Virus record (IMG/VR): IMGVR_UViG_3300012964_000011
Location: 1 to 58,978 of that record
Origin: a virus
Taxonomy: Duplodnaviria > Caudoviricetes
Reading direction: 5' to 3' (one strand)
DNA length: 58,978 bases
Positions 720-58,249 of the stretch are shown here, in pieces; positions within the stretch are counted from its first letter, which is position 1, and each line of letters starts with the position of its first letter. The notes below the pieces were generated by a model. The model was not told where the DNA came from and searched no databases. It saw nothing but the letters and a program-made list of their open reading frames with translations. Position numbers and translations under genes: made by a program.

Positions 720-1549
720 TACTTGTCCCAGATGTATCTGCCTTTGTAGGCATCAACCGTATCCATCAATTTTGACCAGTCCATCTTGGGATGCCAATCA
801 AGATGCTGCCATCCCAATTTTTCCTTGGCATAGACCTGATCCGCCACTTCGCCCGGACGCATAGGTAGGAACTCGATACCAGCCTTGTTACCGGTGTAGT
901 CATTGATAGCATTTGCGACATCCAGTACAGACGTGCAGATACCAGTTCCGGCATCAAACGTCTCATCATTGGTATAGTTAATTGCATCCATAACCATATG
1001 GGCAATGTCATCCGCATGAATCAGATCAACCCCCTGGGTACCGTCACCCCAGACAGGTAGCGGTAGTCCCTGCCATGCCCGCGAGGCGAACGTCGGGATG
1101 ATCTTCTGGGGATGTCCCTTACCCACTGCCTGACCAGGACCGTACGCGTGATATGCGCGAACCGTAGAGGTTCGGAGTCCTTTAGCGTTGTGGTATGCAG
1201 AGATCAGCCTACGTGCACATTCTTTGGTTGCTGCGTAGATGCTGGGGAATCCGGTTGGCATATGGATAGTGATCAGATGAATGCCATTCTCCGCACAGTA
1301 TTTGATGATCTGATGTGCACAAACAACGTTTGTGTGTACAGCCTCATCCGCAACATCAAACAATTCGCCGGTACCGAGCATACCAGCACAATGAATAACT
1401 GTTTTGCATTGTGCAAGTGAATCCAGGTTGTCACTACAAATATTGACACCATTACGTACATCTAACTGTACGATGCCAAATCCCCTGGATTTTGCAACTT
1501 GCACAATAGCGGAACCAATGAAACCACGTCCACCAGTGACACCGATCAT
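719..1549 (-). CDS. NAD-dependent nucleotide-sugar epimerase/dehydratase (extended SDR)
   Basis: TGGRGFIG Rossmann motif, YAATK (YxxxK), YGPGQ, GDGTQ..D.IH. Confidence 0.9.
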
Positions 1550-1570
1550 AAGTACATTCTCCTTGCTGGA

Positions 1571-2245
1571 TTAGATTGGTAAAAATACCTTATGGTCTGT
1601 ATGACCCCAACCAGTTGCCCATTTCAGATTTGTATTCCATTTAAGATCTGAATTACGGATGACAACTGGTAGTGACACCTGATCCTGATGACTCCATCGC
1701 GTGCATTCGAACCACCAGTCACAGCACACAGCGGCTACCTCGTCCGTGTGTCTGCGTACGTTGGTGGTGGACGCGAACAGTCCCCACCGTTCGGGATGTC
1801 CAAGGTGACGGTAGTGTTCTGACTGAAGCCGCATCGCGTCTGGGTACGCACGTCCTACCTTTGCGGTGAATGTTGCCTCGGCGTACACGCAGTCACGCTC
1901 TGCGTGGCGCATCAATGACCAGTCATCGCTACCTATGCAGTCCAGGCAGTACTGAAGGTAATTGGGGTTTGTCACCGTGACAGCAGCATCGACCCAGCAT
2001 GAGATGTCAGTATCCGGGCATGCATCAAACGGATTGAGTTTCCACCATTTGGCTTTCATATTATTGGTCAAACTACCTGCCATTGGCACGTATCTGACTT
2101 TCCATCCAGGTACTGTAAGATTTGGTGTATCTGTATAGAAAATTGACTGTACCTCAACATTTGGTCCTAAATTAGTATTAATACGCAATGGTTTTGGTAC
2201 GTCATAATCACCATACATTGCGGTATATATAGCTAATTTAGTCAC
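1571..2245 (-). CDS. glycosyltransferase, DUF616-like; paralog of 42-719
   Basis: IYTAMYGDYD, KWWKLNP, WVDAA, QDQVSLP; GTG start overlaps the upstream TGA. Confidence 0.8.
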   Translation of the reverse strand: MTKLAIYTAMYGDYDVPKPLRINTNLGPNVEVQSIFYTDTPNLTVPGWKVRYVPMAGSLTNNMKAKWWKLNPFDACPDTDISCWVDAAVTVTNPNYLQYCLDCIGSDDWSLMRHAERDCVYAEATFTAKVGRAYPDAMRLQSEHYRHLGHPERWGLFASTTNVRRHTDEVAAVCCDWWFECTRWSHQDQVSLPVVIRNSDLKWNTNLKWATGWGHTDHKVFLPI

Positions 2246-2697
2246 TTTGGTGTACCTCGCCAAATGATGTCGCAATCCCCACCTGTACGAAGTTCTAGCG
2301 TTTTCCAGGGAAGAATACCATAATCCGCATGTGCACCAAATGTTCCATCAAAATAATGAAATGACTCAATCACCCAGAATGATACGTGTGTTGGATCTGC
2401 AAACGCGTGCCAAGTGTTAGTCGGCATCACCCGAGGGACAATCACATGGAATACGCCACTAGATCTCAGAACACGGTGCACCTCATTGAACACGAAAATG
2501 CGGTCTTCACCCGCACATACATGTTCCATGACATGACTGGCCCGGACCGCGTCTACACTCTTATCCGCTGCTGGTATCCCATCTTCTACACGGCGTTTCC
2601 AGACACCCTGTCCATGTACTGGATCCAGGTTGATATGCCCAGGGGCGGGAATAGTTCCACCACCGATGTCAATCATCAGCACGGGAGGGATCCCCAT
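2242..2697 (-). CDS. class I SAM-dependent methyltransferase
   Basis: IDIGGG motif I, SVDAVRASHVMEH, EVHRVL, DPTH. Confidence 0.85.
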   Translation of the reverse strand: MGIPPVLMIDIGGGTIPAPGHINLDPVHGQGVWKRRVEDGIPAADKSVDAVRASHVMEHVCAGEDRIFVFNEVHRVLRSSGVFHVIVPRVMPTNTWHAFADPTHVSFWVIESFHYFDGTFGAHADYGILPWKTLELRTGGDCDIIWRGTPK

Positions 2698-3356
2698 TTC
2701 GCGAGAAACGTTTCCCGGTCTAAACCGGCTTGACGTGAGAGTACTTCACTGCCAACAGTACTTTCATTCGGGTGCGTATGTGTTACGGGGAACCCCGGTA
2801 CGATCACAGTTCCGCCAAGCACCCTGGATTGCCAGTCAATGTCGTCATCTCCATACCACCAACACAATGTTTCGTCAGCGCGCACACCTGCCTCGCCACG
2901 TAGCATGAATGCGTAGCCACAGAGGCGATGGTAAAGGTTTACAGGTCCAGGAGCACAGTGTGTCAGAGGATGCTTACGACGTTTCGTAATATCTGTAGAT
3001 GCTGCTACGGCACACGTGTCATCCATTGCCTGGACACATGCGTCAAACCATCCTTGAGGGACGGTGCAATCGTCATTGACGACTGCCGTGTCCCATTCGA
3101 TGAAGTCATTCGACCTAGCGTGTGCCGAACACGCATCTAGACCTATATTCCATAGTTTACTAAGGTTCGGCGGATCCATTGGTTCATAAATGTATAATAC
3201 TTTATCTTCTGGATATTCAGGCCATACTACGGAATTACTTGGGTCATTGATCACAACTACGATAAAATCTGTCTGAGGAAGTAGTGCATCTATAGCCAGT
3301 TGTAGCTCACTCGCACGACTTCTAGACGGTATAGTCGCATATCTTCCTGCACGCAT
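2676..3356 (-). CDS. GT-A fold (GT2-like) glycosyltransferase
   Basis: WNIGLD, VVNDD (DxD-like), GYAFML, WWYGDDD; start moved to the ATG at 3356 that follows a leaderless promoter. Confidence 0.75.
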   Translation of the reverse strand: MRAGRYATIPSRSRASELQLAIDALLPQTDFIVVVINDPSNSVVWPEYPEDKVLYIYEPMDPPNLSKLWNIGLDACSAHARSNDFIEWDTAVVNDDCTVPQGWFDACVQAMDDTCAVAASTDITKRRKHPLTHCAPGPVNLYHRLCGYAFMLRGEAGVRADETLCWWYGDDDIDWQSRVLGGTVIVPGFPVTHTHPNESTVGSEVLSRQAGLDRETFLAKWGSLPC

Positions 3357-3420
3357 TGATTCAGCATATCTTAAGATTTCTATTTTACCAACAGGTGATA
3401 TGGCGTGTAATGTAGGCTGT
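3357..3420. promoter_or_regulatory. overlapping divergent leaderless promoters
   Basis: Minus strand TTGGTA-N17-TATGCT-N6-ATG(3356); plus strand TTTACC-N18-TAATGT-N7-ATG(3421); the -35 boxes overlap. Confidence 0.55.
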
Positions 3421-3618
3421 ATGATTGAACGACTGTTGACCCTACGCGAAGTTGCACACCTATTCGGCGTGCGTACTGTGACGATCAGTGAATGGGCAAA
3501 ATCTGGGAAGTTACCATACATAATTTTGCCCACAAATGACCAAAAACGGTTCAAAGAGTCAGAAATCAGACAACTGTACGAGGGAAGATGGGACAATCAA
3601 CCGCTAGACTACAAGTAG
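3421..3618 (+). CDS. BldC-like / MerR-excisionase HTH DNA-binding protein
   Basis: LLTLREVAHLFGV..TISEWAKSGKL resembles BldC LLTPAEVA.MFRV..KTVTRWAKAGKL. Confidence 0.8.
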   Translation: MIERLLTLREVAHLFGVRTVTISEWAKSGKLPYIILPTNDQKRFKESEIRQLYEGRWDNQPLDYK

Positions 3619-3660: not shown

Positions 3661-3666
3661 CCACGA

Positions 3667-3928: not shown

Positions 3929-4408
3929 ATGTGTGAGTACGAAGAAGAAGATCTGCCAAGCGCAGCTGACATCGCGCTAGAAGACCAAATCAGAGCTGCA
4001 ATACGAGAGGTGAGCAGTGTTCTTGCCAATTCGGCGTCAGCAGGGACTGCTGAATTCATTGAAGACCAGATGCCATTGTCACTCAAGAAGTGGCTGGATA
4101 GTGCTGTGAATGAGTTTCAGCGTGAGGTGTTCTCTCACGCTGAAAACGACACACTTATATCGTGTGCTCACGTAGCTGAAGGACCAACACCAATGTTCAG
4201 CGCTCTCAGATATCCGAGAGTGTTCATGTGTCCGTCATGCGCTGAACTAATAAGCAACCTGGTAGAACGTTCGTCAAAGTGTGATTGTTGTGGATACACA
4301 AGAACTTCGCACTACACAGAGGTAAACACCATCATAGTCCAGGTATTTAGTGCTATGGTAGCAGTCAGGTTGTGCATACACTGTCTAAAGGCAGGACCGT
4401 TAACGTGA
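3929..4408 (+). CDS. hypothetical Cys-rich, putative Zn-binding protein
   Basis: CPSC, CDCC and CIHC; GAGGAG RBS. Confidence 0.6.
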   Translation: MCEYEEEDLPSAADIALEDQIRAAIREVSSVLANSASAGTAEFIEDQMPLSLKKWLDSAVNEFQREVFSHAENDTLISCAHVAEGPTPMFSALRYPRVFMCPSCAELISNLVERSSKCDCCGYTRTSHYTEVNTIIVQVFSAMVAVRLCIHCLKAGPLT

Positions 4409-5820
4409 TTGACTTAAACTTCGTATTACCATCATTTCCACATGATTTACCATCTAAGATCACCTCTGAGCTGTTGACACTTGAACAGTTGAACGCTGCG
4501 AATCTGGCGCTTTCTCGTATCCATGAATGTGAAGATTTGACCTGTCTAGGAGGTCTCGCCGGAACAGGCAAAACGACCGTATTGTCCGAATTTATCAGAC
4601 ATTTTGATCCAGTTTCGTATGCACTATGTGCGTTCACAGGAAAGGCAGTTTCCGTACTACAGCGGAAGTTGGATGCTGCTGATGTATGTACTACACGTAT
4701 CATTGAGCGTTTCGGAAAGGAAAAGGAAGAAAGTACAGTAAGTACCATTCACTCGCTAATCTACTTGCGGCGAGAGACTGTAACGTGTAAGCGCTCTGGT
4801 AGAGCACACACGATCACGTACGGCAGAGGGATGCCCGCCATAGGAGAAGAATTCCCCTCCGGTGGTTTTTGTCAGCCATGCCTAGACGCAGGCGAACAAG
4901 CATATTGCGTAACAGAGACTGATGTGGAGTGGATTCGGCGTCAAAAATTGTGGGAAGGACTACAGGTCATCATCATTGATGAGGCATCAATGGTGTCTCG
5001 TGAGATGTTTGATCACCTATCCAGGTATGGGGTCCCGATCCTGGCAGTAGGAGATCATGGCCAGTTGCCACCAGTGTCCAGTAGGCGAGACTCATTCAAT
5101 CTCATGGCAGAAGCTGGTCTTCACGCAAAGTTGGAGACCATTCATCGTCAAGCAGCCGGATCCCCGATCACCATGTTGGCTCACAAGATCCGAAATGAAG
5201 GATCTATGTCTGTCACTGTAGGTAACTACAGTACAGCGTCATCACGGGTACTCAAAGTGAGTCAGCACAGAATGCCTAAACTGGACTGGAAGTCTGCCAT
5301 GGATCCAGAGAACCGAATGGTTGTCCTGTGCGGAAGAAATGCCACTCGGGTACGTATCAACAGGCAGACCAGGGAACAACTGGGGTACTCGGAACTTCCC
5401 CAGAAGGGGGATCGTGTCGTTTGCCTACGTAATTGCAGACAAGCGTTCAACGGTCAACAGGGAACGATCGTAGAGGTACGATCGATCTCATCTACGTCTA
5501 CTGATACTGGTAGTCAGGTACTCACGTTTAATGTGGCACTTGACGACATGCCAGAGGAGATCCTAACTGGGTTACGCGCTCCTATCTCTCAGTTCAACCG
5601 CCCGACTACACTTACGCAGGACGAGCTACGACAGATGCGGGTAGGCGGAGTGACCATCTGGGACTATGCATACTGCATGACAGTGCACAAATTCCAGGGT
5701 AGCGAGGTGCCTCGCGTAGTGGTAATGGAGGAACGACTTCCGGGATCACAAAAAGATCATGATCGTTGGCTATATACTGCTGTCACCAGGTCATCGAGAG
5801 ATTTACTAATCATCAGTTAA
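4405..5820 (+). CDS. RecD/Dda-like superfamily 1 helicase
   Basis: GLAGTGKTT, IIDEASM, GDHGQLPPV, YAYCMTVHKFQGSE, LYTAVTR; GTGA overlap start. Confidence 0.9.
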   Translation: MIDLNFVLPSFPHDLPSKITSELLTLEQLNAANLALSRIHECEDLTCLGGLAGTGKTTVLSEFIRHFDPVSYALCAFTGKAVSVLQRKLDAADVCTTRIIERFGKEKEESTVSTIHSLIYLRRETVTCKRSGRAHTITYGRGMPAIGEEFPSGGFCQPCLDAGEQAYCVTETDVEWIRRQKLWEGLQVIIIDEASMVSREMFDHLSRYGVPILAVGDHGQLPPVSSRRDSFNLMAEAGLHAKLETIHRQAAGSPITMLAHKIRNEGSMSVTVGNYSTASSRVLKVSQHRMPKLDWKSAMDPENRMVVLCGRNATRVRINRQTREQLGYSELPQKGDRVVCLRNCRQAFNGQQGTIVEVRSISSTSTDTGSQVLTFNVALDDMPEEILTGLRAPISQFNRPTTLTQDELRQMRVGGVTIWDYAYCMTVHKFQGSEVPRVVVMEERLPGSQKDHDRWLYTAVTRSSRDLLIIS

Positions 5821-6469: not shown

Positions 6470-6693
6470 GCCAGTGGTTGGATGAAGAATTGCATATTGA
6501 TGTGACACATTGTCCAGTGTGTCACAGAATGCCAAATAAGATAGTGAATACTATAATTCACATTAACAGACGTGATACTCGTACTCCACATGATCTACTG
6601 ATTTGTGGAGACAGAGTAGATAGGACGGAATATCATCTGGTGTTCCGTGCATCAGAGATACCTACATGGGTACGCTGTGAGAGGACGCATTGA
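6466..6693 (+). CDS. hypothetical protein with CxxC
   Basis: ATGA overlap; CPVC. Confidence 0.5.
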   Translation: MSQWLDEELHIDVTHCPVCHRMPNKIVNTIIHINRRDTRTPHDLLICGDRVDRTEYHLVFRASEIPTWVRCERTH

Positions 6694-7025
6694 TGGCGAC
6701 AAGAACACCCAGCAAACCAGCTAGTAAACCGACACAAGAAACGTTCAATCAGCATCGTCCCAATGGGAAGAAGTGGTCTAGGCATCACAGTATGCTTCCT
6801 GTGCACCCTGGGCACAACACAACTGGACGAACCAAGCCGTCCGGACACAGCGTTGCAGGATACGGAATGCATCACCCTAAGGTGTCACCTGTTGACCATG
6901 TAGTCTTGTTTCAGGTAGTTCTGTTTCAGGAAGAGGAAGCAGCGAAACGTCACATCAAGCGTAGTCAGCGTGCCAAAGCGCGCTCAGATGCCCGTAAAGC
7001 AATGACCAGAAAGCGTTCTCATTGA
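6693..7025 (+). CDS. hypothetical basic protein
   Basis: GAGGA RBS; TGATG coupling. Confidence 0.5.
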   Translation: MATRTPSKPASKPTQETFNQHRPNGKKWSRHHSMLPVHPGHNTTGRTKPSGHSVAGYGMHHPKVSPVDHVVLFQVVLFQEEEAAKRHIKRSQRAKARSDARKAMTRKRSH

Positions 7026-7041: not shown

Positions 7042-7069
7042 AATCCAGGGGGTAATTACCCCCTGGATT
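7042..7069. repeat. perfect 28-bp palindrome (terminator or binding site)
   Basis: AATCCAGGGGGTAA|TTACCCCCTGGATT; intergenic. Confidence 0.8.
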
Positions 7070-7084: not shown

Positions 7085-7297
7085 ATGAAATCAGATATCA
7101 GCATTCTAAGCATTCTCGACAAAATCACCTACTATCTGACACTCAACCCTAAAGTAACAGCCTGTAGCATAATCACCATTTGTGGTGTTTATGTATTACG
7201 TAAGGCATTGTCCAATAACATGATTAAAATACTATTCTTTGTGTTTGTTACAGCTGGTATGACGTATGCTTGCACAACTGGTATCCAGGGGGGATGA
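7085..7297 (+). CDS. small membrane protein
   Basis: Two hydrophobic segments; GGGAG RBS. Confidence 0.55.
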   Translation: MKSDISILSILDKITYYLTLNPKVTACSIITICGVYVLRKALSNNMIKILFFVFVTAGMTYACTTGIQGG

Positions 7298-8504: not shown

Positions 8505-10292
8505 ATGTCTTTACAAAGGATTCAGCTGCACGTAATAGACAGTTGGGAAGAAGCTTGTAAATTCATCTCCTGGGCAGCAACACGGGATGCCCAGGGGAGT
8601 GTAGGAGTCGACACAGAGACGACAGGATTGAACAGGCAAACAGACCGGCCACGGACGATCCAGGTGGGGGGAAGAGAGCACGGATGGTGCATTCCTGTAG
8701 AAGGACCTAACGGGTTTACGGGAATTTTCTCAGAATTCGTACGTTCATACACAGGACAATACATCATGCACAATGCAGTGATTGATAGGCTGATGCTTGA
8801 AAAGATAGGCATCAGGCTGCCAAAGCATCGCATTGGTGATACACGCGTAATGTCTCATATCTTGGAGCCTGACAAGCACACAGCACTAAAAGAACAGGCC
8901 GCTAGGCATGTAGACAAGGGAGCAGCAGAAGCCAGTCATCGCCTGGACAAGGCACTGGGAACCGGTGAAGACGGTTACACATGGGCAACCATCCCATTGG
9001 ATTTCGGGCCATATTGGCAATATGCAGGTTTGGATACCATCCTTACCATACATCTGTATGACCACCACTGGCCACTGGTCCAGGGTGAAGCACCTAAGTC
9101 GTATGATCTAGAGATGGCTGCACAGTGGATCACGGCAGCCATGACTGTTAAAGGCGCACGTGTAGACGTGCCATACGCACGTAAGGCAAAGGATGAACTA
9201 GCTGAGATTGTTACAAGTCTCAGATATGAGATCGAATCAGACTACGACTTCAGTCCAGGCAGCAACAAGAAGATCATTGCATATCTGCAAAGTGATGGAA
9301 TCAACTTTGAAAAGAAGACCAAAGGTGGGGCGTTATCACTGGACGCTGAAGTACTGGCGTCTATCGACCACCCATTAGCAAATCAGGTTTTGCGCTATCG
9401 TAAGGCACAAAAGCTGGTGTCCACATATCTAGAGCACTTCTGCACAGAAACAGATGCTGATAGTCGAATCCATCCAACCATCAATAATCTTGGCGCTAGG
9501 ACAGGACGTATGTCCATGTCTAAGCCAAATATGCAAAACTTACCCAGGGTGTCAGAGGGTGACTCCGACTCTCTGTACGTGCGTAACTCAATAGTCTCCT
9601 CTCCCGGACACACGTTGGTCCTCTGTGATTTCTCTCAGATTGAGATGCGCATATTGGCGTCATACTCCAAGTGCGCACAAATGATCAACGCATTTAAGAG
9701 TCCAGAGGACTTCTTCGTTACTTTAGCACAACAGATATTTAAGGATAGTGCAATTGACAAAGGTGATAGTCGCAGACGTCTAGTCAAGAACGGATGCTAC
9801 GCCCGGATATATGGTGCCGGACCTGGGAAGTTCGCTCGCACCGCGCGCGTAACAGCGCAAGCATCACACGACTTTTTTAGTCGGTTCAACCTGTATTATC
9901 CAGAAGTAGACAAGTTTGTCAGAGCGATCGAATCTACCGCGTGGAAACGTTTCAGATCAGAGAAGCAAGCGTATGCCAGATCTCTGATAACCAGACGTAG
10001 ATTTGTGGCTGATCCAGGTAGGATCTATGCACTACTCAACTACCTGATCCAGGGATGTGCAGCTGAAATTCTCAAGCTTAAACTGGTAGAGCTTGACGCA
10101 ATTGGGCTTGGAAAGTACATGATTCTACCTGTTCATGATGAAATTATCATGGATGTTCCGGATGATGAGGTTTCGAGTGTCATAGATAGTCTGCATGATA
10201 TTATGCATGATGATAGCATTTTAGACGTCCCTATCACTGCTACCGTAGCTACTGGTCGCAGGTGGGGAACCAAGAGTGAGATAGCCTGGTAA
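8505..10292 (+). CDS. polA: family A DNA polymerase (3'-5' exonuclease plus polymerase)
   Basis: VDTETTGL Exo I, TGRMS..PNMQNLP, DFSQIEMR motif A, K...Y..IYG motif B, VHDEI motif C. Confidence 0.95.
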   Translation: MSLQRIQLHVIDSWEEACKFISWAATRDAQGSVGVDTETTGLNRQTDRPRTIQVGGREHGWCIPVEGPNGFTGIFSEFVRSYTGQYIMHNAVIDRLMLEKIGIRLPKHRIGDTRVMSHILEPDKHTALKEQAARHVDKGAAEASHRLDKALGTGEDGYTWATIPLDFGPYWQYAGLDTILTIHLYDHHWPLVQGEAPKSYDLEMAAQWITAAMTVKGARVDVPYARKAKDELAEIVTSLRYEIESDYDFSPGSNKKIIAYLQSDGINFEKKTKGGALSLDAEVLASIDHPLANQVLRYRKAQKLVSTYLEHFCTETDADSRIHPTINNLGARTGRMSMSKPNMQNLPRVSEGDSDSLYVRNSIVSSPGHTLVLCDFSQIEMRILASYSKCAQMINAFKSPEDFFVTLAQQIFKDSAIDKGDSRRRLVKNGCYARIYGAGPGKFARTARVTAQASHDFFSRFNLYYPEVDKFVRAIESTAWKRFRSEKQAYARSLITRRRFVADPGRIYALLNYLIQGCAAEILKLKLVELDAIGLGKYMILPVHDEIIMDVPDDEVSSVIDSLHDIMHDDSILDVPITATVATGRRWGTKSEIAW

Positions 10293-10294
10293 GT

Positions 10295-10771
10295 ATGACA
10301 CATTTGCGTATTCTTGGCATTGATCCTGGAAAGTGCACAGGATTAGCGTTGATCACAGAGAGTGGATTCAGAGCATGGCAAGTAACGGATCGCATAGTTC
10401 CGGCGATCCTGGAAGTCATCCGAGAAAATGTTCCATGTCACATAGCATGTGAACGTTTCGTGCATGGAATGCGCAGTGTCAGGAATACATCACAAAACAG
10501 TGCTGCTATAGTCGTAAACGCGTTGTCCGTACAGTGTGAAGCGCTCGGGATCCCATTCGAGCGTCAGGCTGCCGGAGAAGCCAAGCTACTGTCAAACAAC
10601 TTGTTGCAACGTGTCGGCTTGTACACTGTGCACAAAGAGCACGCTAATGACGCGGCTAAGCATGCGCTATTCTATCTACTCAAACATTACCCAACAGAAT
10701 ACCATAATATGATAACAACTGGACATCTGTACCCAGAAGAGTCAAATGATCCAAAGGAATCAAATGCCTAA
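10295..10771 (+). CDS. RuvC-like Holliday junction resolvase
   Basis: ILGIDPG, CERF, HANDAAKH. Confidence 0.8.
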   Translation: MTHLRILGIDPGKCTGLALITESGFRAWQVTDRIVPAILEVIRENVPCHIACERFVHGMRSVRNTSQNSAAIVVNALSVQCEALGIPFERQAAGEAKLLSNNLLQRVGLYTVHKEHANDAAKHALFYLLKHYPTEYHNMITTGHLYPEESNDPKESNA

Positions 10772-12593: not shown

Positions 12594-12603
12594 GAGCATA
12601 GTT

Positions 12604-14480: not shown

Positions 14481-14527
14481 CCTAGGCACCAGAAAACAAC
14501 ACATACCAAACTGAAAGGCTCAAAACA

Positions 14528-46528: not shown

Positions 46529-47037
46529 ATTCCCGGTCGGTTACCTAGTTCTGCTGTTCAAACATTCTTAGCATATCAGACAAATAGTGGCATACAGCCC
46601 AGGAGAGAGTTACGCGGAGTGGTAACCAATCTTCTGACTGTATGCCACTATTTGCTTACTACCTGTAATTTTTTCAAGATCATGGTTACCATTTTTCCCG
46701 TGGTTACCAAACCGAAAAAAAGTGGTAACCAGAGTTTCCCCTGGTCAGAGCGTTTGGTTACCTGGTTACCGTGGTTACCGCATTTTCTTGTGTACGTCCC
46801 TCTATAAGAACGTTACGGCTCCATATAATTTACTGCTAATAGCATATGTTAATTAGATACCCCCTATTTCAATACGCTATTAACAGCAAACATACTCTCC
46901 AAAACTCTATATATATATTTCTTAGGTAACCATAGTAACCAGGTAACCAGAGAGGGATCTTAGTACTTTTAGCAGGCAATATAGAAGATCATCGTGGTTA
47001 CCAACTTGGTTACCTTGGTTACCTTTTTGTGGTTACC
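46519..47037. repeat. putative replication origin: GGTWACC iteron clusters around an AT-rich core
   Basis: About 15 GGTTACC/GGTAACC copies right after the primase-helicase, flanking an AT-rich stretch with (TA)n. Confidence 0.8.
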
Positions 47038-47415
47038 CCAGAAAATGTGCCACTTGACCAGGTGCTATTACAGATTGTAGTGGATCAAATACATTGATAA
47101 TTTACGATAGGTGTTGACCTGTGTTTATAGATCAGTGTAGATGATTGATGATCTTTAATAAAGAACTTATCCACACAAAGTAGACAGAAATCTTACCTAG
47201 TGCTACTCAATAACTACCTATCGTAGTCAAATCTGCCTCACCCCCTGGATACTCCGGTAACCACACTGACTGTCAAACACCCCCTGGGCGTACCGAGGAT
47301 GGCGGTTGATTGAGTCCATGGGTAGCTGACAGATGGTCGCTACAGTTGTGTGTATGTCAAGTCATGTGACATACTATCTCTGTACGTATCTGAAGGACCC
47401 GAGGAAGGAAACATC

Positions 47416-47991
47416 ATGAAGACAGTAGAGATCAAGGTTGCCAACAACAGGCTGTATGTAGGAACTCCGTACAACCCCGCCTGGATACTAGGGTGCAAAA
47501 TGCTTGGTGGCAGATGGGATCGGGGAACGATCTCATGGATATTTGACAGCAGAGATGAAGAGAGGGTGCGTTCCCTCTGCAAAAAGATTTTTGGTACAGA
47601 CGGAACAGATAGTAAAGTCGTTACAGTTCGGATAAATGCACATCAGTGGTGGAGAGCATCCGGGAAGGGTTCCAAGATCTGGTTTGCTGGCCGAGAAATA
47701 GCTGGCCGTATGAGCAGAGATTCTGAGGTCTACCTAGGTGAGGGTGTAATCCTCATCGAGGGGAGCTTCCCATCACGTGGCGGAAGCATGCGGTACCCGA
47801 GTGTCGATCCAGATTCGAACATCATCCTAGAGGTCAGGGATGTTCCAGCTGGTCACACTGATATCCAGGTGGGCGGAGTAGAAATAGTCGAGGTCACTGA
47901 AGGTGTGGACTTCGATGCACTTCGGGCAGAGCGCGAACGCCTCATGACTCGACTGGCAGAGATCAACAATATCCTCTCCCCTGGGCAGTAG
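47416..47991 (+). CDS. hypothetical phage protein
   Basis: GAGGAAGGA RBS; TPYN...LGGRWD; C-terminal coiled coil. Confidence 0.7.
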   Translation: MKTVEIKVANNRLYVGTPYNPAWILGCKMLGGRWDRGTISWIFDSRDEERVRSLCKKIFGTDGTDSKVVTVRINAHQWWRASGKGSKIWFAGREIAGRMSRDSEVYLGEGVILIEGSFPSRGGSMRYPSVDPDSNIILEVRDVPAGHTDIQVGGVEIVEVTEGVDFDALRAERERLMTRLAEINNILSPGQ

Positions 47992-48003
47992 CCCCTCACG
48001 CGT

Positions 48004-48032
48004 ATGGACCGGGTAGCCACTACCCGGTCCAT
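48004..48032 (+). terminator. hairpin
   Basis: ATGGACCGGGTAG / CTACCCGGTCCAT. Confidence 0.65.
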
Positions 48033-48309
48033 TCTGCATTCAGGAGTATGTGCCAGAGACACGAATTCCCCTCCTGGGTAGTCCGGTGTACCCTTGGACA
48101 CTTCAGTGCCTCAGAAATCCAGGGGGAGAGTAGGATTGAGATATGATCACCAACGGTGAACGGAAGAGATCCTCACACTGCGCAACATCAGCATGTGTGG
48201 AAGTAATTCGTAGTGGTGCGTTCATGTGTGCAACAGATGGAGTTACGAGTATCTATTTCCTCCTGGATCACTGGAGAGAATTTGTGAAATCACTAAAGAA
48301 AGATTCGAT

Positions 48310-48732
48310 ATGACAATACAGACTGTGCAAGAAAAGACATTACCGCACTCATGTGGTAAATGTGACATACGTTGGAATGGTTATGCAACTGCTCATTGTG
48401 GAGGATGCCACTACACTTTCACATGTATTGGTGCATTCGATGCACATAGATGTGGAACGGGTGATACCGCACACTGCAAGCCACCTGCTCAGTGTGGTCT
48501 GGTCAAATCGGGACGTTCCTACCATTGTTGGGGATTCCCTAGCGATGATGACAATATGGGAGCAATCGCACGTTGGAAGGCGAAACAATCCACCACCTTG
48601 GATCCTGCACCTAATCCAGAGGTGGAAGTGGATGTGTATGGCTCTGTAGAGGACTCTGAGACGTCCGTAGACGCAAGATCCAGTCACATGCTCACCGGTA
48701 CACCTACCCCTGGATTTAGCGCCTTAGCGTAA
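48310..48732 (+). CDS. FDxHR-type Zn-binding phage protein
   Basis: CGKC...W, HCGGCH.TF....FDAHR. Confidence 0.7.
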   Translation: MTIQTVQEKTLPHSCGKCDIRWNGYATAHCGGCHYTFTCIGAFDAHRCGTGDTAHCKPPAQCGLVKSGRSYHCWGFPSDDDNMGAIARWKAKQSTTLDPAPNPEVEVDVYGSVEDSETSVDARSSHMLTGTPTPGFSALA

Positions 48733-48871
48733 AAATGTATGTAGTTGAATATTTGAATACTTAGGTAGATGTACTTAGATGTCTCTACCTAAGTATTTAG
48801 ATATACAGATAAAGCACTGACCTGCAAATATGTATCAACACTGATTTATCAAAGGATGGTATACTCACATC

Positions 48872-49225
48872 ATGTCTGAATTGAAACCGTTCATTGGTAG
48901 TCATGTACACTTCACTGAGGCGATACACATAAAGGATGCTTACTCTGTTGGGTATTCACTTGTTTGTCGTTTTGCTGTCGTCACTTACATTCACAATAGA
49001 TATGATTTGCCAGATGTGTCAGAGGATGACCCTCAGATACACTTTTGGGAGGTTGGACTGGCGATCTTTACTCAGACACATATTTACTTCAGAGAGCACG
49101 TCTTACAGGACCCAAGGGACAGGTACACATCAACAGGACTATCGGAGAATGTCACACGGTGGCGTACGAGCACGTGGCATTGGCCTAGGCAAACATCTGC
49201 ATGCGAAAGTTGGTCATCCAAGTGA
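48872..49225 (+). CDS. hypothetical protein, paralog 1 of a tandem trio
   Basis: P.IG..VHF, CRFAVVT, VGLAIF, TWHWP; TATACT-N6-ATG. Confidence 0.65.
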   Translation: MSELKPFIGSHVHFTEAIHIKDAYSVGYSLVCRFAVVTYIHNRYDLPDVSEDDPQIHFWEVGLAIFTQTHIYFREHVLQDPRDRYTSTGLSENVTRWRTSTWHWPRQTSACESWSSK

Positions 49226-49488
49226 GTAACATACTAGTTGGTAACATCGTGCACTACGTTCCGGAAGGTGCCGTAGGTGTCGGATGTCAAGATTACTGTA
49301 AACGTGCAGTAGTTTATCATGTTTCGAACGTAGTAAGTGCTGAACTGGGATGGCTACACGCACACTGTAGGAGGGCAGTACTACTAGATCTTGTCGTTGA
49401 CAATGAAACATTTATCGATGTACGAGAGGATGATGCACTCATGTGTTCGGGTACGTGGCATCATCCTATTGATCACTCAGATAGATAG
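49222..49488 (+). CDS. hypothetical protein, paralog 2
   Basis: VGNIVHYV, CKRAVV, GTWHHP; GTGA overlap. Confidence 0.6.
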   Translation: MSNILVGNIVHYVPEGAVGVGCQDYCKRAVVYHVSNVVSAELGWLHAHCRRAVLLDLVVDNETFIDVREDDALMCSGTWHHPIDHSDR

Positions 49489-49589
49489 ACATAACTACAA
49501 ATCACCCCCCACCTGGATTAACGTGTTGCAGTTTCTTTGATTAGTAACTGCAACCTATTCCAACCATCCTAGGAAGGTACACTATCAGC

Positions 49590-49853
49590 ATGAATCAGAC
49601 ACCGGAATGCATCGCTAAGATGGTACATTACAGAAGCTATGGTACACCAAATGGAGAGTACCCATCTGTATGTCGAGCCGCTGTCATAACCGAGATTGAC
49701 CCAGAGAATGACAAATTTAGTGAATCTGTAGGGTTGTGCGTGCTGAACCCTACCGGAATGTTCTTCAACCAGCACGTACCACACGATTCTTATGATCAGG
49801 TAGTAAATCGTAGTACCTGGACACCAGGTACTTGGCATTGGCCTTGCCACTGA
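49590..49853 (+). CDS. hypothetical protein, paralog 3
   Basis: VHYRSYGTP.GEY...CRAAVITE, VGLCVLNPTG.FF, GTWHWP; TACACT-N6-ATG. Confidence 0.7.
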   Translation: MNQTPECIAKMVHYRSYGTPNGEYPSVCRAAVITEIDPENDKFSESVGLCVLNPTGMFFNQHVPHDSYDQVVNRSTWTPGTWHWPCH

Positions 49854-49859
49854 TCATAG

Positions 49860-49898
49860 ACGTAGGAGAGGGAGTCCCTCTCCTACGTTTGTCTTTTT
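49860..49898 (+). terminator. intrinsic terminator
   Basis: ACGTAGGAGAGGGA/TCCCTCTCCTACGT then TTGTCTTTTT. Confidence 0.75.
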
Positions 49899-49947
49899 AA
49901 CCATCCTAGGAAGCTAGGTAACCACTACCCTGTGACGTAGACCACTG

Positions 49948-49985
49948 TCCACTAACTTGACTTCAACCTCTCCAGCTGTCATTCT
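49948..49985 (+). promoter_or_regulatory. early promoter sharing GTCCACTARCTTGAC with 54605
   Basis: TTGACT-N17-CATTCT. Confidence 0.5.
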
Positions 49986-50114
49986 ATATGCGGCAAGCAA
50001 AACGGCCAGGGAGACAAGGGGAGTCTTCTGAACAGTTTCTGAATTGTAGTTTGAAAATTACATGCAACATCGTCATCAGATTTAGATCAGTATTTATGAT
50101 TTAGGGAGATCATC

Positions 50115-50537
50115 ATGGCTAAGACACTCTACGATGGATACACCAAAGCCCAGTTGATCAATTGGGCGCGCGATGAGAAGATCCGTGGATATACCCGGAT
50201 GAACGGTTACCAGCTGTTACAGGTCTGTCAGGAAGCCCAGATGGTGCGTAACTACGGTAGAGAGCAGGCTCTACTCGAACAGGGCACCGTAGGTCCCGGA
50301 ACTGTCCTCCAATACCGAGGTCACCCAGACTACGTAATCAGGGTAAGCTCCGGCATCATGCAAGACAGTATGGGAACCTACGTATACTCGGAGACACTCT
50401 CCCTTCCCTATGAGCTACGGTACGGATTCTCGCTTAAGCGTGACGTTGCCATTGATAACGAGCTCAAGGCTTCATCCCCAGAACTACACAAGGACCGTCT
50501 CTACAATCTAGAGCACATTCCATGTACCGAGATCTGA
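50115..50537 (+). CDS. protein with a Rho-N-like N-terminal helical domain
   Basis: TKAQLINWARDEKIRGYTRMN..QLL. Confidence 0.6.
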   Translation: MAKTLYDGYTKAQLINWARDEKIRGYTRMNGYQLLQVCQEAQMVRNYGREQALLEQGTVGPGTVLQYRGHPDYVIRVSSGIMQDSMGTYVYSETLSLPYELRYGFSLKRDVAIDNELKASSPELHKDRLYNLEHIPCTEI

Positions 50538-50586
50538 TCTACTTTCTGGATGTTCGGATATTGCCGAACATCCAAATGGAAGATCA
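50535..50586 (+). ncRNA. repeated intergenic stem-loop, copy A
   Basis: TGATCT-ACTTTC-[11-bp stem]-AATGGA-AGATCA. Confidence 0.7.
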
Positions 50587-50614
50587 AATCATCTAATCAG
50601 AAAGGTTATCTGAC

Positions 50615-51061
50615 ATGAAGCGCAGTGAACTCCACGTAGGAGATGAACTCTATCATGCCACAGAGTGGCAATGGAAAAATCACGAAGGGTATAAGGCTAC
50701 TGTCTGTTCAACAGAGCCTTACAAAGAAAGTACATGGGGTCGTCACTACTCAGTACCTAAGGGTCCTGGGGTTCTAGTAACGATGGGGAATAGCGACTAT
50801 CAACGAGTCGTCACCCTTGGATCCCTACGGGGACCATACGAACAAATAGCGGCAGAGGTAGAAGTCAGAAGAGCAGCCGCACAACTTCAAGAAAAAGAAG
50901 CTGACCAGCTCTACAAAGAGCGTTCCGCGCGAGTTACCGAACTCATCGAACGGGCAACTGCACAGGGCATCACCGCTCGTGTAGAGGATGGTTCTCGATC
51001 TATAGTCCTATCTGTATCCGACTTCACCAAGCTCATTGAGCATCTGGATAGGACAACATGA
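50615..51061 (+). CDS. hypothetical protein
   Basis: GAAAGG RBS; SH3-like N-terminus plus coiled coil. Confidence 0.65.
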   Translation: MKRSELHVGDELYHATEWQWKNHEGYKATVCSTEPYKESTWGRHYSVPKGPGVLVTMGNSDYQRVVTLGSLRGPYEQIAAEVEVRRAAAQLQEKEADQLYKERSARVTELIERATAQGITARVEDGSRSIVLSVSDFTKLIEHLDRTT

Positions 51062-51303
51062 AGAACATCGTAGATGACAACATGAACAAAATCATAGAGG
51101 CTCAACGAAGGTACATAGACGCATGCCTCGACTGCGACGTACTGGTCGACCAGTTGGAGACATGCAATTACGACCCGTCGTTGTCCGAGGAGATGCTACG
51201 TGCCGCTGACCATGCCGCTGTCGTCTTACTGTTACAAATCAAAGTTGCCGTAGACAAACGACGTGAAGCTTGGAAGGACTTGAATACCACACTGAACAGC
51301 TGA
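51058..51303 (+). CDS. hypothetical protein
   Basis: ATGA overlap; AGGA RBS. Confidence 0.6.
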   Translation: MKNIVDDNMNKIIEAQRRYIDACLDCDVLVDQLETCNYDPSLSEEMLRAADHAAVVLLLQIKVAVDKRREAWKDLNTTLNS

Positions 51304-51320
51304 TCAGTCGCTAACCAGTT

Positions 51321-51354
51321 GGGGGTAGGCAAAGTGCCTACCCCTACTGCTTTT
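51321..51354 (+). terminator. intrinsic terminator
   Basis: GGGGTAGGC/GCCTACCCC then a U-tract. Confidence 0.65.
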
Positions 51355-51565
51355 GCAACAACCACAAATGCAATCCTTGCATTCTGAACACGCGTTCATA
51401 AACTTCTAGTCCATATTCACACTATTTATCGATAAAAATCTACACAAATCCACATAAATACTCGACATGAAGAATCAATATTCTAAGTTTGCCCCTCCCC
51501 CTGGATTGATGTACTGTGCCTTGAGTACCGAGATTCCCGGGGATCCAGAACAGAATGGGGACAAA

Positions 51566-52123
51566 ATGCCTGAACCTGTAAGTTTATGTCAAATGACCTT
51601 CAGCCAGAAAATGGCATATGCCCTGGAAAAAGAGGAGGAACTGAAAGAAGGCGAAGTTAAATCGCGGAACCGGGCCAGGTACGGATTGCCGAGCATCACC
51701 GAGACGGTGTGTCGTGACATTTGCCTATCGAAGTCTCAGTACTACCGGGGGAAGAGAATATGGACAGCAAGATGGTCAGATGATCCAGAGGTTGCAGATA
51801 CAGCTGAGGAACTCATCCGCCTCCTGGATTCTTCCGGAATCACGATTGTAGAAGCAGACAAGCGACTGCATAGACTGAGAGACCAGCGAGCGCAGGGAGT
51901 CCGAACAAAGTTTACAGTCCTAGAACAGCATAAACTTCTCAAAACACTGCCCGAACTTGCTGGTATGGCCCTTGCTCTGTCCAGGGTGCCGGAGTTATCC
52001 GGCGATTGTGATCCGGTACTCATCTACCGATCCCTGGATTTTGCGAACCGGGCGAGAAGGGATCTTAAGCATCTAATTGATACACTAAAGAAATTTACCC
52101 CAAACGGGGACTATTTCTCATAG
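51566..52123 (+). CDS. helical protein resembling the HTH half of ParB
   Basis: S.KMAYA.E...R..ICLSKSQYYRGKRI; adjacent to the ParB-like gene. Confidence 0.45.
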   Translation: MPEPVSLCQMTFSQKMAYALEKEEELKEGEVKSRNRARYGLPSITETVCRDICLSKSQYYRGKRIWTARWSDDPEVADTAEELIRLLDSSGITIVEADKRLHRLRDQRAQGVRTKFTVLEQHKLLKTLPELAGMALALSRVPELSGDCDPVLIYRSLDFANRARRDLKHLIDTLKKFTPNGDYFS

Positions 52124-52146
52124 TCACTACTAAAGGAGGATAATCA

Positions 52147-52923
52147 ATGAAACGACCGATCACTACGATCCTAAGAGCATCACAACTCAAGATTGATCCT
52201 ACTGTGCAGCGTAGGATCAACATGTCTCGTGTGTCGGAGATGGCACATAACCTAGAGTATGAGGCGCTGGGATTCATCACCGTGTCAGCACGTAATACAG
52301 ATGAGAGTCAATACTACGTGATTGACGGGCAACACCGCGTAGCGGCTGTTTGCAAGGTGAATTCGGGCTATCAAATGAGATGTCAGGTTTTTTATGGTTT
52401 GACCATCCAGGAAGAGGCACAACTGTTCAGGCTTCTGAATAACACTGCAAAGCCGGATGCCATTGACTCATTCCTGATCAAGTGTGTGGAAGGGGATCCA
52501 GCTTCCCTGGATATTGACAAGATTCTAGAAGAACGAGATTGGTCTGTCTCCGCCCGCGGAGCGGAGCGTGTAGTACGGAGCATCCGGACTATTGAGAAGC
52601 TGTATGCCAGGGGTACTCCGAAGACGTTGGAGAGCACCGTGGACGTTCTTACGGCAGCGTACGGGTACCACTACACCACCATGGATTTTCGTCTCGTGTC
52701 GGGGTTGTGGGAATTTTTCCATAGGCACGTGACAGTTGCGATCCCCGATGAAGGGCGTGTAATCAAGGTCCTCAGCACGTATCCAGGGGGTAGCCAGGCA
52801 CTGATTGGAATGGGCCTAGGACATGCCCTTACCAGGAACGGTGTTGGTACGTGCATCGCACGGGTAGTCACAGAACTATATAACAAAGGACTTAGGACGA
52901 GAATGAAACTCTCAAGCATCTAA
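52147..52923 (+). CDS. ParB/Srx-like (DUF6551-type) protein
   Basis: LKIDPTVQR, YVIDGQHR, EEAQLF..LN; GGAGG RBS. Confidence 0.8.
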   Translation: MKRPITTILRASQLKIDPTVQRRINMSRVSEMAHNLEYEALGFITVSARNTDESQYYVIDGQHRVAAVCKVNSGYQMRCQVFYGLTIQEEAQLFRLLNNTAKPDAIDSFLIKCVEGDPASLDIDKILEERDWSVSARGAERVVRSIRTIEKLYARGTPKTLESTVDVLTAAYGYHYTTMDFRLVSGLWEFFHRHVTVAIPDEGRVIKVLSTYPGGSQALIGMGLGHALTRNGVGTCIARVVTELYNKGLRTRMKLSSI

Positions 52924-56328: not shown

Positions 56329-56559
56329 GTTCAAATACACAGGACCAAACCCAGTTGGTCCACAACGTAACGGATGGACCATCGTCGGCAAATGTCCCGA
56401 ATGGGACGAAGCACGGACACAACAAGCGCAGGCGTACAGCGCGGCATGCGCAGCAATGAGTAACGGAGAGTGGGACGGTATTTGGTACTAGATTTTTGGA
56501 TCATGTTCAACTCTGTTGAACATGGTCTTGGAGCCTAGTCAACGAGAGGTTGTGCTCAG

Positions 56560-56778
56560 ATGGTCAAATACAGAAGAGTTAATTGGAATGTGTACGGGTA
56601 TTGTGCCACTTGCAACGCGGATCCAGGGGGGGCATGCAAGAATCTACGCTACACAGATGCTAGATCATCTCACCCGCTGTACAACGATACCCCGCACCGT
56701 GGGCGCACGAGGCTCACGGTAGAGCAACAGGAGTGGGAGTACAGCTATAAGCAGCAGTATGAGGACTACTCCGGCTAG
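56560..56778 (+). CDS. phage Zn-finger protein
   Basis: CATCNA.PG..C...PH.GR. Confidence 0.6.
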   Translation: MVKYRRVNWNVYGYCATCNADPGGACKNLRYTDARSSHPLYNDTPHRGRTRLTVEQQEWEYSYKQQYEDYSG

Positions 56779-56857
56779 TTTCTGTGGTATCCGTATGAAC
56801 TATACGGATATCGCAGTGACCGTCCGGTCAGCACAAATATCAAATCAGGAGTTCATC

Positions 56858-58249
56858 ATGTCTAGTGCAGAGACTCAAAGCATTCCAAGCATTCCAAGCA
56901 TTCCAATCATTGAGGTGGATGCTGACCAGCTGTATATGGAACAGACCGGAGAGCTTCCTCGGACCCTGTCCTGGGCGTTGTCCACTGATTCGATATTTAT
57001 CGATGGAATCCTCAAGCGTCTTATGGCCTCAATGCGGTCCGCGGTCTATCGAGGAAACGTCTCTTTCGTTCTGGAATGGGATCATGATACGAAAGCCACC
57101 AGACCAGTTGAGTACGGTATAGAGGCGTTCTGTCAGGGTGATCTGACGGTGTGGTCGGACGGTGGGGAACATTCCCCTCGACCGTGGCGGCTATCCGCCC
57201 GCGTCGAAGCGCGGATGGATGACTACGGGGTTGGAGGATTTCACGCAGTCCCTGATACACCAGGAGAGGCTATTGTAGCCTCCAGGCACACATTGGAGGT
57301 CACTAAATTCGTTGGACAGTCGGTAGCCAACATGATTGTGGGACTGCTCCCTGGTCTACTGGCTCGCGAGCACATTGAAGACCTGCTTGAACTTCCGCGT
57401 TCTAGAATGCCTCTACCGGGTGATGTCCGGGAGTGGGAGGAACTCTCCCAGGACTGGAAGTGTAAGGTACGTCCGCCAGTAGCTGGACCTGATCAGTACG
57501 CCAAAGCTGAGGAAATTTCCAAAATGATAAATGATGAGATTACTGATCATCGAAATGTGATCCTGTCTCTGATTGAAGACATCCTCGGGATTTCTGGCAC
57601 ATACGACCTGAAACCTGGTGACAAGTCTGTAATCAGATGTGATAAAGATATTTACACATTGGATGCTGCCAGACTGGCAAATATACTAACTCTGTGTGGA
57701 TATCCCATCTACACAGATGAAAATGGACTTTCAATACCTCCAAAATCAAAAGATTTTTCCAGTAAATTGTACATGCTAATGGATCTGATTAAACAGTACC
57801 CATGGGTTAATTTAACTCCAAATCTCAATACTATGGCTTCTGTAATTGAAGTCCCTCTCAGTGCATTGGTACGTGCTGGTCTAGACGATTGTCTGGACGC
57901 GGTACGAGCATATGAGAAAACCATTCGAGATCATCTCAAAAATCTGATGGATCAACTTACCGCAGGATTGCTGGATGGTCCTGTAGGACAAATCCAGGGT
58001 ACGTACGATTGGCACGATGACAGTGAGCTGCCGTCAGCCAGTACTATCGCGTCGGCTAGGGATGCCATCATCTCCACCGGATGGTTGGCGGAAGTGCATT
58101 CCGTCGACCAGGAGGGACTACATCCGTGGGGGTTGTACGCGGTCCCATCGGACGGTTGGGACCACGGAATGCGCAGGGTGCTCAAATGGCTAACCGGAAG
58201 TCTCGGAGACACGCTCAAAGTTCTGGTAATGCCGGTTCCTGAACCGTAA
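56858..58249 (+). CDS. large hypothetical protein (463 aa)
   Basis: AGGAG RBS; long ORF with no motif I recognise; AGCATTCCA x3 near the start. Confidence 0.7.
   Translation: MSSAETQSIPSIPSIPIIEVDADQLYMEQTGELPRTLSWALSTDSIFIDGILKRLMASMRSAVYRGNVSFVLEWDHDTKATRPVEYGIEAFCQGDLTVWSDGGEHSPRPWRLSARVEARMDDYGVGGFHAVPDTPGEAIVASRHTLEVTKFVGQSVANMIVGLLPGLLAREHIEDLLELPRSRMPLPGDVREWEELSQDWKCKVRPPVAGPDQYAKAEEISKMINDEITDHRNVILSLIEDILGISGTYDLKPGDKSVIRCDKDIYTLDAARLANILTLCGYPIYTDENGLSIPPKSKDFSSKLYMLMDLIKQYPWVNLTPNLNTMASVIEVPLSALVRAGLDDCLDAVRAYEKTIRDHLKNLMDQLTAGLLDGPVGQIQGTYDWHDDSELPSASTIASARDAIISTGWLAEVHSVDQEGLHPWGLYAVPSDGWDHGMRRVLKWLTGSLGDTLKVLVMPVPEP

Follow-up and report, generated by a model that had tools for sequence, protein, structure and literature searches.

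A strand-biased word dispersed through the genomes of a phage clade as a probable replication-linked signal and a possible priming map

The systems closest to the one described here are the primases of pRN1 and NrS-1. The helix bundle of the pRN1 primase binds GTG and an 8-nt unit primer is made on the bases 5′ of this GTG, according to the available part of the report (PMC8076596), and the NrS-1 Prim-Pol recognises 5′-TTTGGTTA-3′ and 5′-GTG(A/G)-3′, its authors remarking, in the portions of the text at hand, only that GTG sites outnumber TTTGGTTA sites (PMC8718748). Phages rich in Chi have been described as well; in the accessible part of that work, LLS carries 23 Chi, 20 of them in one orientation and one per 1.86 kb, and MD8 has 32 against 0 (PMC12315714). 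Here we have analysed a word, TCCAGGG, that is repeated throughout the IMG/VR virus record IMGVR_UViG_3300012964_000011, a phage DNA from wetland metagenomes. The whole record, 58,978 bases in length, is referred to as the window, and it is labelled G000 among the compared genomes.

Our best explanation is that the word serves as a strand-specific signal linked to replication, which a phage clade has written into its own genomes. We favour replication because the word is strand-specific, blind to transcription, linked to one arm of the origin and inherited together with the replication module, and because its copies on one strand are evenly placed, 1.5-2.5 kb apart. As to its function, we propose tentatively, and at somewhat short of an even chance, that it is the template word at which the phage's own Prim-Pol, of the pRN1/NrS-1 type, starts lagging-strand primers. 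The primase as the reader, the strand that it reads and the direction of the fork are three points that we infer.

Over-representation of the word in the window and its relatives

A search of both strands found 52 exact copies of TCCAGGG in the window, forming an array at 1483-57999 with, as in its word-bearing relatives, one copy per about 1-2 kb. Thirty-eight lie on the plus strand (starts at 2304, 3865, 5693, 7044, 7284, 9079, 10048, 13892, 18128, 21872, 22112, 22841, 26195, 27140, 28186, 29823, 31288, 32334, 33212, 34180, 34299, 34679, 34835, 36132, 37138, 37990, 41539, 42326, 43466, 44646, 44723, 46100, 48118, 51980, 52782, 54684, 56622 and 57993) and 14 on the minus strand (1483, 2822, 5870, 7061, 15236, 22878, 33707, 38424, 47243, 48708, 51499, 51621, 52032 and 52505). 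The preliminary description of this DNA, made from its letters alone, had counted about 38 and about 14 copies; these counts were exact and every coordinate listed in it, from 1483 to 57999, was recovered.

Composition does not account for this abundance. In 100 dinucleotide-preserving shuffles, TCCAGGG occurred 6.71 times on average over both strands (standard deviation 2.79, maximum 13) and none of them reached 52, while the Markov expectation was 4.3 on the plus and 3.7 on the minus strand at order 2, and 6.8 on the plus strand at order 3. The codon-aware controls consisted of 200 shuffles of each kind over 18,000 codons in 89 called genes, which cover 93% of the window. Permuting synonymous codons within genes, thus keeping protein, dipeptides and codon usage, gave 11.5±2.4 copies on the plus strand (maximum 20) and 7.7±2.0 on the minus strand (maximum 15), with a plus-minus difference of 3.7±3.1 (maximum 13) against the 24 observed. 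Permutation of codon order within genes gave 7.8±1.8 and 6.7±2.0 copies on the two strands, respectively, and the strictest control, in which third positions were swapped within genes with dinucleotides also kept, gave 17.7±2.5 on the plus strand (maximum 25). The 38 plus-strand copies and the difference of 24 lie beyond the maxima of these shuffles; therefore enrichment and strand bias, for which codon- and dipeptide-preserving shuffles had been proposed as the check, both persist. The split of 38 out of 52 is itself unlikely under equal use of the strands (binomial p=0.0012).

The bias is also independent of the direction of transcription, as the preliminary description had argued from genes of both strands. 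In the minus-strand late block, which holds the terminase, portal and major capsid genes, there are 19 copies on the plus strand (18 genic and 1 intergenic) and 3 on the minus strand, just as stated there. Sorted by gene strand, plus- and minus-strand copies number 19 and 5 in all minus-strand genes, 15 and 6 in plus-strand genes and 4 and 3 between genes, so that the plus excess is found in genes of both strands. Forty-five of the 52 sites are inside called genes, where the word falls in each of the three reading frames, whether it is on the coding or the template strand, which bears out the claim of differing frames.

Regarding the form of the word, the base directly 5′ of TCCAGGG is a purine at 49 of the 52 sites (A at 30, G at 19), T at 3 and never C, and we therefore take RTCCAGGG (R, purine) as the firm core. 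The longer form RTCCAGGGG, proposed earlier, holds for its leading purine, whereas the trailing G is found at only about half of the sites (27/52). Two head-to-head copies, 7044 on the plus and 7061 on the minus strand, make up a perfect 28-nt palindrome, AATCCAGGGGGTAATTACCCCCTGGATT, at 7042-7069, in the gap between the open reading frames (ORFs) 6690-7025 and 7085-7297; the sequence confirms this palindrome as previously described, and no T-tract terminator was found at it. Close inverted pairs of the word, 13-17 nt apart, also occur in G001 (25280-25305 and 48973-48998), G008 (about 21481), G009 (about 571), G010 (about 36204) and G016 (about 10871), and hairpins with stems of about 9 bp are possible at such pairs.

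Relatives of the window were recruited through the capsid protein and a polymerase alignment, giving 20 records, some of them partial, and 21 with the window. By k-mer statistics on whole records, 12 of the 21, the window included, carry variants of 5′-R-Y-CCAG-N-GGG (Y, pyrimidine; N, any base), such as ACCCAGGGGG, ACCCAGTGGG and ATCCAGCGGG. The ACCCAGGGGG form is found in G001, G002 and G007, with CCCCTGGG in G001 reaching 29 and 18 copies on the two strands against 0.5 expected; G006 and the window have TCCAGGG(A/G); G008, G009 and G016 have ACCCAGTGGG, as does G017, though weakly; and G010, G011 and G012 have (A)TCCAGCGGG. The signal is weak in G018, and the same statistics gave no R-Y-CCAG-N-GGG word in G013, G014, G015, G019, G020, G003 and G005, while G004 was too short to be classed. 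The bearers range in GC content from 0.48 to 0.65, and the word classes track the polymerase tree, the C class standing at two places on it. Cultured phages offered no nucleotide match to the window (megablast); at the protein level its relatives among them are actinophages, with at most 38% identity in the capsid and 35% in the polymerase.

Aligned single sites are kept in G008, G009 and G016 at 28-54%, compared with 4-10% in windows shifted by 20-50 nt, with a weaker contrast in G011 and G012 (28-41% against 22-29% in the shifted controls). Conservation in related phages, another check that had been suggested at the outset, thus finds sites kept above nearby shifted windows, though turnover occurs too. 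The word is under selection, including at synonymous sites, rather than being a product of composition.

Some other repeats in these records turned out to be of a different kind. The idea that each lineage has a separate word of its own was partly wrong: the words ACCGGTAAC and ACCGGAAAC of G013 and G014 are origin iterons. More distant polymerase relatives (L074-079, L065-083) were likewise rejected as bearers: their repeats are 20-22-bp palindromes, mostly intergenic, and thus another kind of element. These perfect palindromes, ACCTCCCAAATTTGGGAGGT and CACCTACT...AGTAGGTG, lie in L074-L079 and in L065-L067, L080 and L083, which are records of 31-43 kb with a GC content of about 0.64, and they resemble operator or terminator sites. 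G003 (L021-L023), a GC-rich capsid relative without the word or a Prim-Pol, has 8-12 copies of (C)TGTGGGA(C), all of them on the same strand, and ACCCGGA 25 and 9 times on the two strands. A literature search on the words themselves returned nothing relevant and, among the matches listed, nothing on phages.

Polarity, spacing and the putative origin

The G-rich form of the word is commoner on the polymerase-coding strand in 12 of 12 bearers (sign test p=0.0005), and this strand is antisense to the terminase and capsid genes. In the window, the strongly polar stretch extends from 7284 to 46106, with 28 copies on the plus and 4 on the minus strand, and spans the replication genes and the primase region, both on the plus strand, as well as the late genes on the minus strand. 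Within it, sites in plus-strand genes number 9 on the plus strand (7284, 9079, 10048, 13892, 42326, 43466, 44646, 44723 and 46100) and 1 on the minus strand (15236).

Spacing is likewise a property of one strand. Majority-strand gaps are more even than random: their coefficient of variation (CV) falls short of the mean for random placement in 11 of 12 genomes, with p=1.5e-7 when the tests are combined by Fisher's method, while spacing on the minority strand is not more even than chance (combined p=0.18, 12 genomes). G001 has a majority-strand gap CV of 0.42; for the plus-strand copies of the window the CV is 0.74, compared with 0.96 for random placement (p=0.029), and the largest gap is 4.2 kb. 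Spacing on the presumed read strand, with a mean of 1.55 kb for the window and 2.05 kb for G001, is regular and of Okazaki-fragment size. Pairs of copies less than 60 nt apart are scarce on the same strand (3, with 14.0 expected), but on opposite strands they are about as common as expected (15 against 12.1).

A putative iteron replication origin (46518-47257) follows the primase-helicase gene immediately and contains 16 of the 24 copies of GGTTACC/GGTAACC in the genome. GGTTACC is the second enriched word of the window, and it is not dispersed. The cluster is laid out as inverted triple arrays at 46755-46779 and 46925-46949 around an AT-rich spacer with a TATATATATATTT run, followed by a further (T)GGTTACC array at 46996-47037. 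We take it, on its layout and position, as the putative origin because iterons recur behind the primase-helicase gene in five relatives (G001, G006, G010, G013 and G014). A 62-aa ORF overlapping it (46619-46807) is probably not a gene.

We placed the origin at the gap behind the primase-helicase gene in 10 genomes, relying on iterons in 4 of them and on synteny in the other 6, and the two arms differ. On the arm of the structural genes, the G-rich word points to the origin in 45 cases against 10 within 6 kb and in 107 against 38 within 20 kb; on the other arm it is balanced, at 26 against 25 and 78 against 90. The difference between the arms is significant at both distances (Fisher p=9e-4 at 6 kb and 1e-6 at 20 kb). 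The primase-origin segment is inverted in the window relative to the other genomes, and polarity follows position, not gene strand. Right of the origin, the window has a stretch of reversed polarity (47243-52511) with 6 copies on the minus and 2 on the plus strand; it is the most minus-rich arc of the circular map and starts at the first site past the origin, but the permutation test is weak, since 60 of 300 shuffles for TCCAGGG, and 26 of 300 for YCCAGGG, do as well.

The priming reading, its candidate reader and the rival explanations

If the word does serve priming, replication would begin at the iterons immediately behind the primase-helicase gene, and the fork leaving through the structural genes would run co-directionally with late transcription. 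The lagging-strand template of the structural arm would carry the C-rich form, 5′-CCC(N)CTGG(R/A)Y-3′, the 3′ part of which would be bound by the helix-bundle domain of the primase, while the catalytic domain would copy the bases 5′ of the bound part. The primer would then be the G-rich word 5′-R-Y-CCAG-N-GGG itself, about 8-10 nt long and with a conserved purine as its first base, and the presence of one word per 1.5-2.5 kb on the lagging-strand template would set the length of the Okazaki fragments. Perhaps, and this wider proposal we make with considerable reserve, the clade, probably composed of Actinomycetota phages, encodes a lagging-strand priming map of its own, at which some 25-60 words of 8-10 nt, written by synonymous codon choice about every 2 kb on the structural-arm template, are read by a drifting Prim-Pol of the pRN1/NrS-1 type. 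The specificity of the enzyme would have to drift base by base together with all genomic sites, from G to T to C at one position and from C to T at another. If this is true, a primase of such high specificity would also prime on no DNA but that of the phage, so that replication would in a sense recognise self.

The candidate reader is the 825-aa product of 44051-46528 (plus strand), a Prim-Pol (AEP) primase fused to a D5_N/SF3 helicase, which is matched by the Pfam families Prim-Pol, D5_N and DUF5906 and is a DNA primase by PHROG. A structure model of its residues 1-400 is moderate (predicted local distance difference test score, pLDDT, 60.7), the helical bundle at 240-306 being confident. A Foldseek search with this model returned the pRN1 primase as best match (9aam, E 7e-6; 3m1m; 1rni), followed by NrS-1 N300, and the helicase part matches PDB 7ola; the predicted fold of the N-terminal part of the window primase is thus that of the pRN1 primase, helix bundle included, and also resembles NrS-1 N300. 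A Prim-Pol domain is found in 12 of 12 bearers of the word, and G003 and G015 lack both the domain and the word. In genomes of the C class, the C-rich strand often runs on as ...CTGGGTG, at 19 of 39 sites in G001, 14 of 16 in G009 and 12 of 16 in G016.

Several observations weigh against priming by this enzyme. Homologs of the Prim-Pol (37-40% identity to the G001 domain) are present in the word-less G013, G014, G019 and G020, and genomes that share the word can have divergent primase domains (31% between G001 and G007, 29% between the window and G006). No gene family was present in the bearers and absent from the word-less genomes, and co-variation of alignment columns with the word class, using the polyphyletic C class, returned phylogeny only, G010 siding with its kin in all 16 families. 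On the second arm polarity is lost and not mirrored, when simple bidirectional replication predicts mirroring; the window itself does mirror within 6 kb of the origin (8 against 3). A change-point falls at the origin in the window and about 0.5 kb off in G010 (p=0.3), neither being significant, and none was found at the origin in G001, G006 and G008. At 8-10 nt, moreover, the word exceeds any primase word that we found in the literature, as far as the available text of these reports extends (PMC8718748, PMC8076596). Finally, a start directly 5′ of GTG would give a primer opening with C, yet pRN1 primers open with ribo-A in the part of the report at our disposal (PMC8076596).

The other readings offered by the preliminary description, and some that it did not name, were weighed on the same evidence. 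It had listed a polar DNA signal, Chi- or KOPS-like (FtsK-orienting polar sequences) or concerned with priming or packaging, a dispersed protein-binding site and a modification target, and had named a RecD-like helicase and a ParB-like protein among possible readers. The polar signal stood, being found in 12 of 12 genomes, blind to transcription and tied to one origin arm, and priming fits it best; the KOPS-like option, the named readers, the modification target and a symmetric double-strand site did not fare well. The main rival, which we consider unlikely, is a control word in the manner of Chi, read directionally on single-stranded DNA by a helicase-nuclease that it would switch from degradation to recombination, thereby protecting replicating or concatemeric phage DNA and marking it as self; the phage SNF2 helicase with the PD-(D/E)XK exonuclease, or a host enzyme of the AdnAB/RecBCD type, could be the reader. 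The word does co-occur with a conserved recombination module (exonuclease, SNF2, Sak4, RuvC-like and SSB-like), and its polarity is tied to genome geometry, not to transcription; yet its G-rich strand points to the origin in this clade, the opposite of Chi in E. coli. The orientation bias, the density and the selection at synonymous sites recall LLS and MD8, but the Chi-rich lambdoid phages, in the text available, lack Rec modules, have their Chi near an open DNA end and use 8-nt words (PMC12315714), whereas here the module is present, the copies are evenly spread and the word is of 8-10 nt. A near-identical word at phage GC contents from 0.48 to 0.65 is also hard to square with a signal set by the host. 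ACCCAGGGG was not dense in any of the 301 Actinomycetota genomes sampled, the densest having about one per 29 kb and most having 1-4 times the reversed-word control, a result that covers one variant and one phylum; 11 of the 301 are unpublished (G146, G027, G200, G252, G074, G265, G044, G174, G108, G294 and G114) and the other 290 give the same result. In one metagenome-assembled genome with a related phage contig, YCCAGNGGG was not enriched (188 against 248 for the control). The Actinomycetota counts thus weaken a host-set word. None of the 20 relatives, those with the strongest words included, encodes a homolog of the named RecD/Dda-like helicase (4372-5820) or ParB-like protein (52147-52923), and neither is supported as the reader.

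It is rather improbable that the word is a dispersed double-strand binding site for a phage protein, a genome-organising or regulatory dimer on the quasi-palindrome TC(A/C)CCC-W-GGG(G/T)GA, in the manner of stoperators or of NBS/parS-like arrays. The core CCCWGGG/CCWGG is palindromic, the 13-mer TCACCCAGGGGGA of G001 and its reverse complement agree at 10 of 13 positions and close inverted pairs exist, but a symmetric site has no strand, and the asymmetric form shows polarity in each of the 12 bearers and even spacing on the majority strand only. Its orientation does not follow transcription, in contrast to that of stoperators, and 45 of 52 sites are genic. A protein for this role could be the conserved Zn-ribbon protein of 41460-42197 (minus strand; PHROG 3678), with an invariant Cys/His pattern, C...C..PAGxGTxHxGxGxCxxHGG, and a helical C-terminus, whose gene lies between the origin and the late genes in most relatives; it was found in 8 of the 9 near-complete bearers with the window protein as query and in 9 of 9 with its G001 homolog, though also in the word-less G014 and G020. 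A homolog search with it returned only 2 proteins. Strand-specific transactions other than priming, such as nicks of the T5/phiKMV type or a sequence-specific base modification, are distinctly improbable. Nicks of T5-like phages do fall on one strand at a consensus, the word contains CCWGG, most relatives code for three proteins, namely a C5-cytosine methyltransferase, a thymidylate-synthase-like (TS-like) enzyme and dUTPase_2, and the window has glycosyltransferases and a sugar epimerase. Yet the window has the word without a homolog of any of these three proteins, and the word-less genomes of the polymerase clade (G013, G014, G015, G019 and G020) have them in 5 of 5 cases; on this distribution the methyltransferase was rejected as the reader, and the modification target proposed earlier is not supported. 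The window shares the glycosyltransferase cluster with G007 and G015 only, no nickase candidate stands among the conserved genes, and neither nicking nor modification explains the even spacing. Least probable of all, and by our estimate very much so, is an orientation signal for a DNA translocase in packaging or ejection, polar since the late arm would be threaded one way. The polar arm is indeed the structural arm beside the terminase genes in 10 of 10 genomes, and the direction of the bias is genome-wide, but even spacing on the Okazaki scale is not expected from such a signal and the polarity of the window runs on through the replication genes and the primase region, outside the late operon. 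We know of no phage terminase that reads orienting words, and none surfaced in our literature searches, which were on other topics and not aimed at this point. A KOPS-like role, for its part, disagrees with the G-rich word pointing towards, not away from, the putative origin on the polar arm, and with the balance of the other arm.

Under either the priming or the Chi-like reading, the word shows that synonymous sites of phage genes are strongly selected for something other than coding. If it is a priming signal, this would be the first virus, as far as our searches and knowledge go, to fix its Okazaki starts by long specific words within genes; word and reader could then co-evolve across genomes differing by 17 points of GC, and the direction and origins of replication could be read from sequence alone in uncultured phages. 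If it is Chi-like instead, no earlier word that controls recombination would have been tied to a helicase-nuclease of the phage itself.

Other features of the genome and likeness to known systems

The window starts with (GT)21 and CAAC at 1-46 and ends with (GT)22 and CAAC at 58931-58978, and the assembly therefore probably closes on itself, with a GT microsatellite of about 42 bp between the ORF at 58654-58893 and the glycosyltransferase gene at 42-719. The replication and recombination module (8505-14998, plus strand), common to all word-bearing relatives, consists of genes for a family A DNA polymerase (8505-10292), a RuvC-like protein (10295-10771), an SNF2 helicase (10746-12593), a PD-(D/E)XK exonuclease (12604-13566), a Sak4-like protein (13665-14480) and an SSB-like protein (14528-14998), all on the plus strand. 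A cluster of sugar enzymes on the minus strand (42-3596) codes for two glycosyltransferases, a nucleoside-diphosphate-sugar epimerase, a methyltransferase-like fragment and a 306-aa protein of no assigned function; the window shares it mainly with G007 and G015, the 306-aa protein alone having homologs in five more records, and its target may be the cell surface or DNA. In G001 (L020:12940-16552, L018:8356-9288), as in most relatives, a further module comprises the C5-cytosine methyltransferase (533 aa), dUTPase_2, an unknown 483-aa protein and the TS-like enzyme, which hints at a modified cytosine in most of the clade; the window lacks this module. A 755-aa protein of the head region (33076-35343, minus strand) matches an RNA-ligase PHROG at residues of about 88-260 and, in its C-terminal part, PHROGs annotated as head protease and portal.

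Compared with known systems, the origin itself resembles that of P4 alpha with ori/crr in having GGTTACC iterons and an AT-rich spacer directly after a primase-helicase gene; this likeness covers the origin only and not the dispersed word. The stoperators of cluster A mycobacteriophages are mostly intergenic and flip with the direction of transcription. They too are asymmetric sites, about 13 bp long, that are scattered in tens of copies and change in sequence from lineage to lineage along with a phage protein, whereas the word described here is genic, occurs in all frames and keeps its plus bias in both gene orientations. The T7 gene 4 primase uses the site 5′-GTC-3′, preferably 5′-GGGTC-3′, giving pppACCC. 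It is alike in that an uncopied recognition base is followed by a few templated bases fixing the sequence of the primer, and the primer predicted in the C-class genomes would also open with A-C-C-C; it is unlike in being of the DnaG type with a zinc finger, not AEP, and in its sites of 3-5 nt, which need no enrichment because they are frequent by chance.

The lambdoid phages LLS and MD8, as the accessible text presents them, resemble our clade in having a short asymmetric word that is under selection, recurs about once per 2 kb and strongly favours one orientation (PMC12315714). Theirs, however, is the 8-nt Chi of the host, clustered near one DNA end in phages without recombination genes (PMC12315714, same portion), while this phage has a recombination module, spreads its word evenly and has no word-rich group among the 301 Actinomycetota genomes. 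With pRN1 ORF904 and the NrS-1 Prim-Pol, the architecture is the same, a Prim-Pol domain, a helical bundle and an SF3 helicase, and a short single-strand word would likewise be read by the helix bundle and the primer made on the bases 5′ of it, following what is available of these reports (PMC8076596, PMC8718748). In addition, the length of the word is close to that of the 8-nt unit primer of pRN1, and its C-rich strand ends in GTG in several relatives. No genome-wide array, polarity or spacing of words is described for either enzyme in those same parts of the two papers (PMC8076596, PMC8718748); the word described here, by comparison, is of 8-10 nt, present in about 50 copies, evenly spaced, polar and drifting between lineages.

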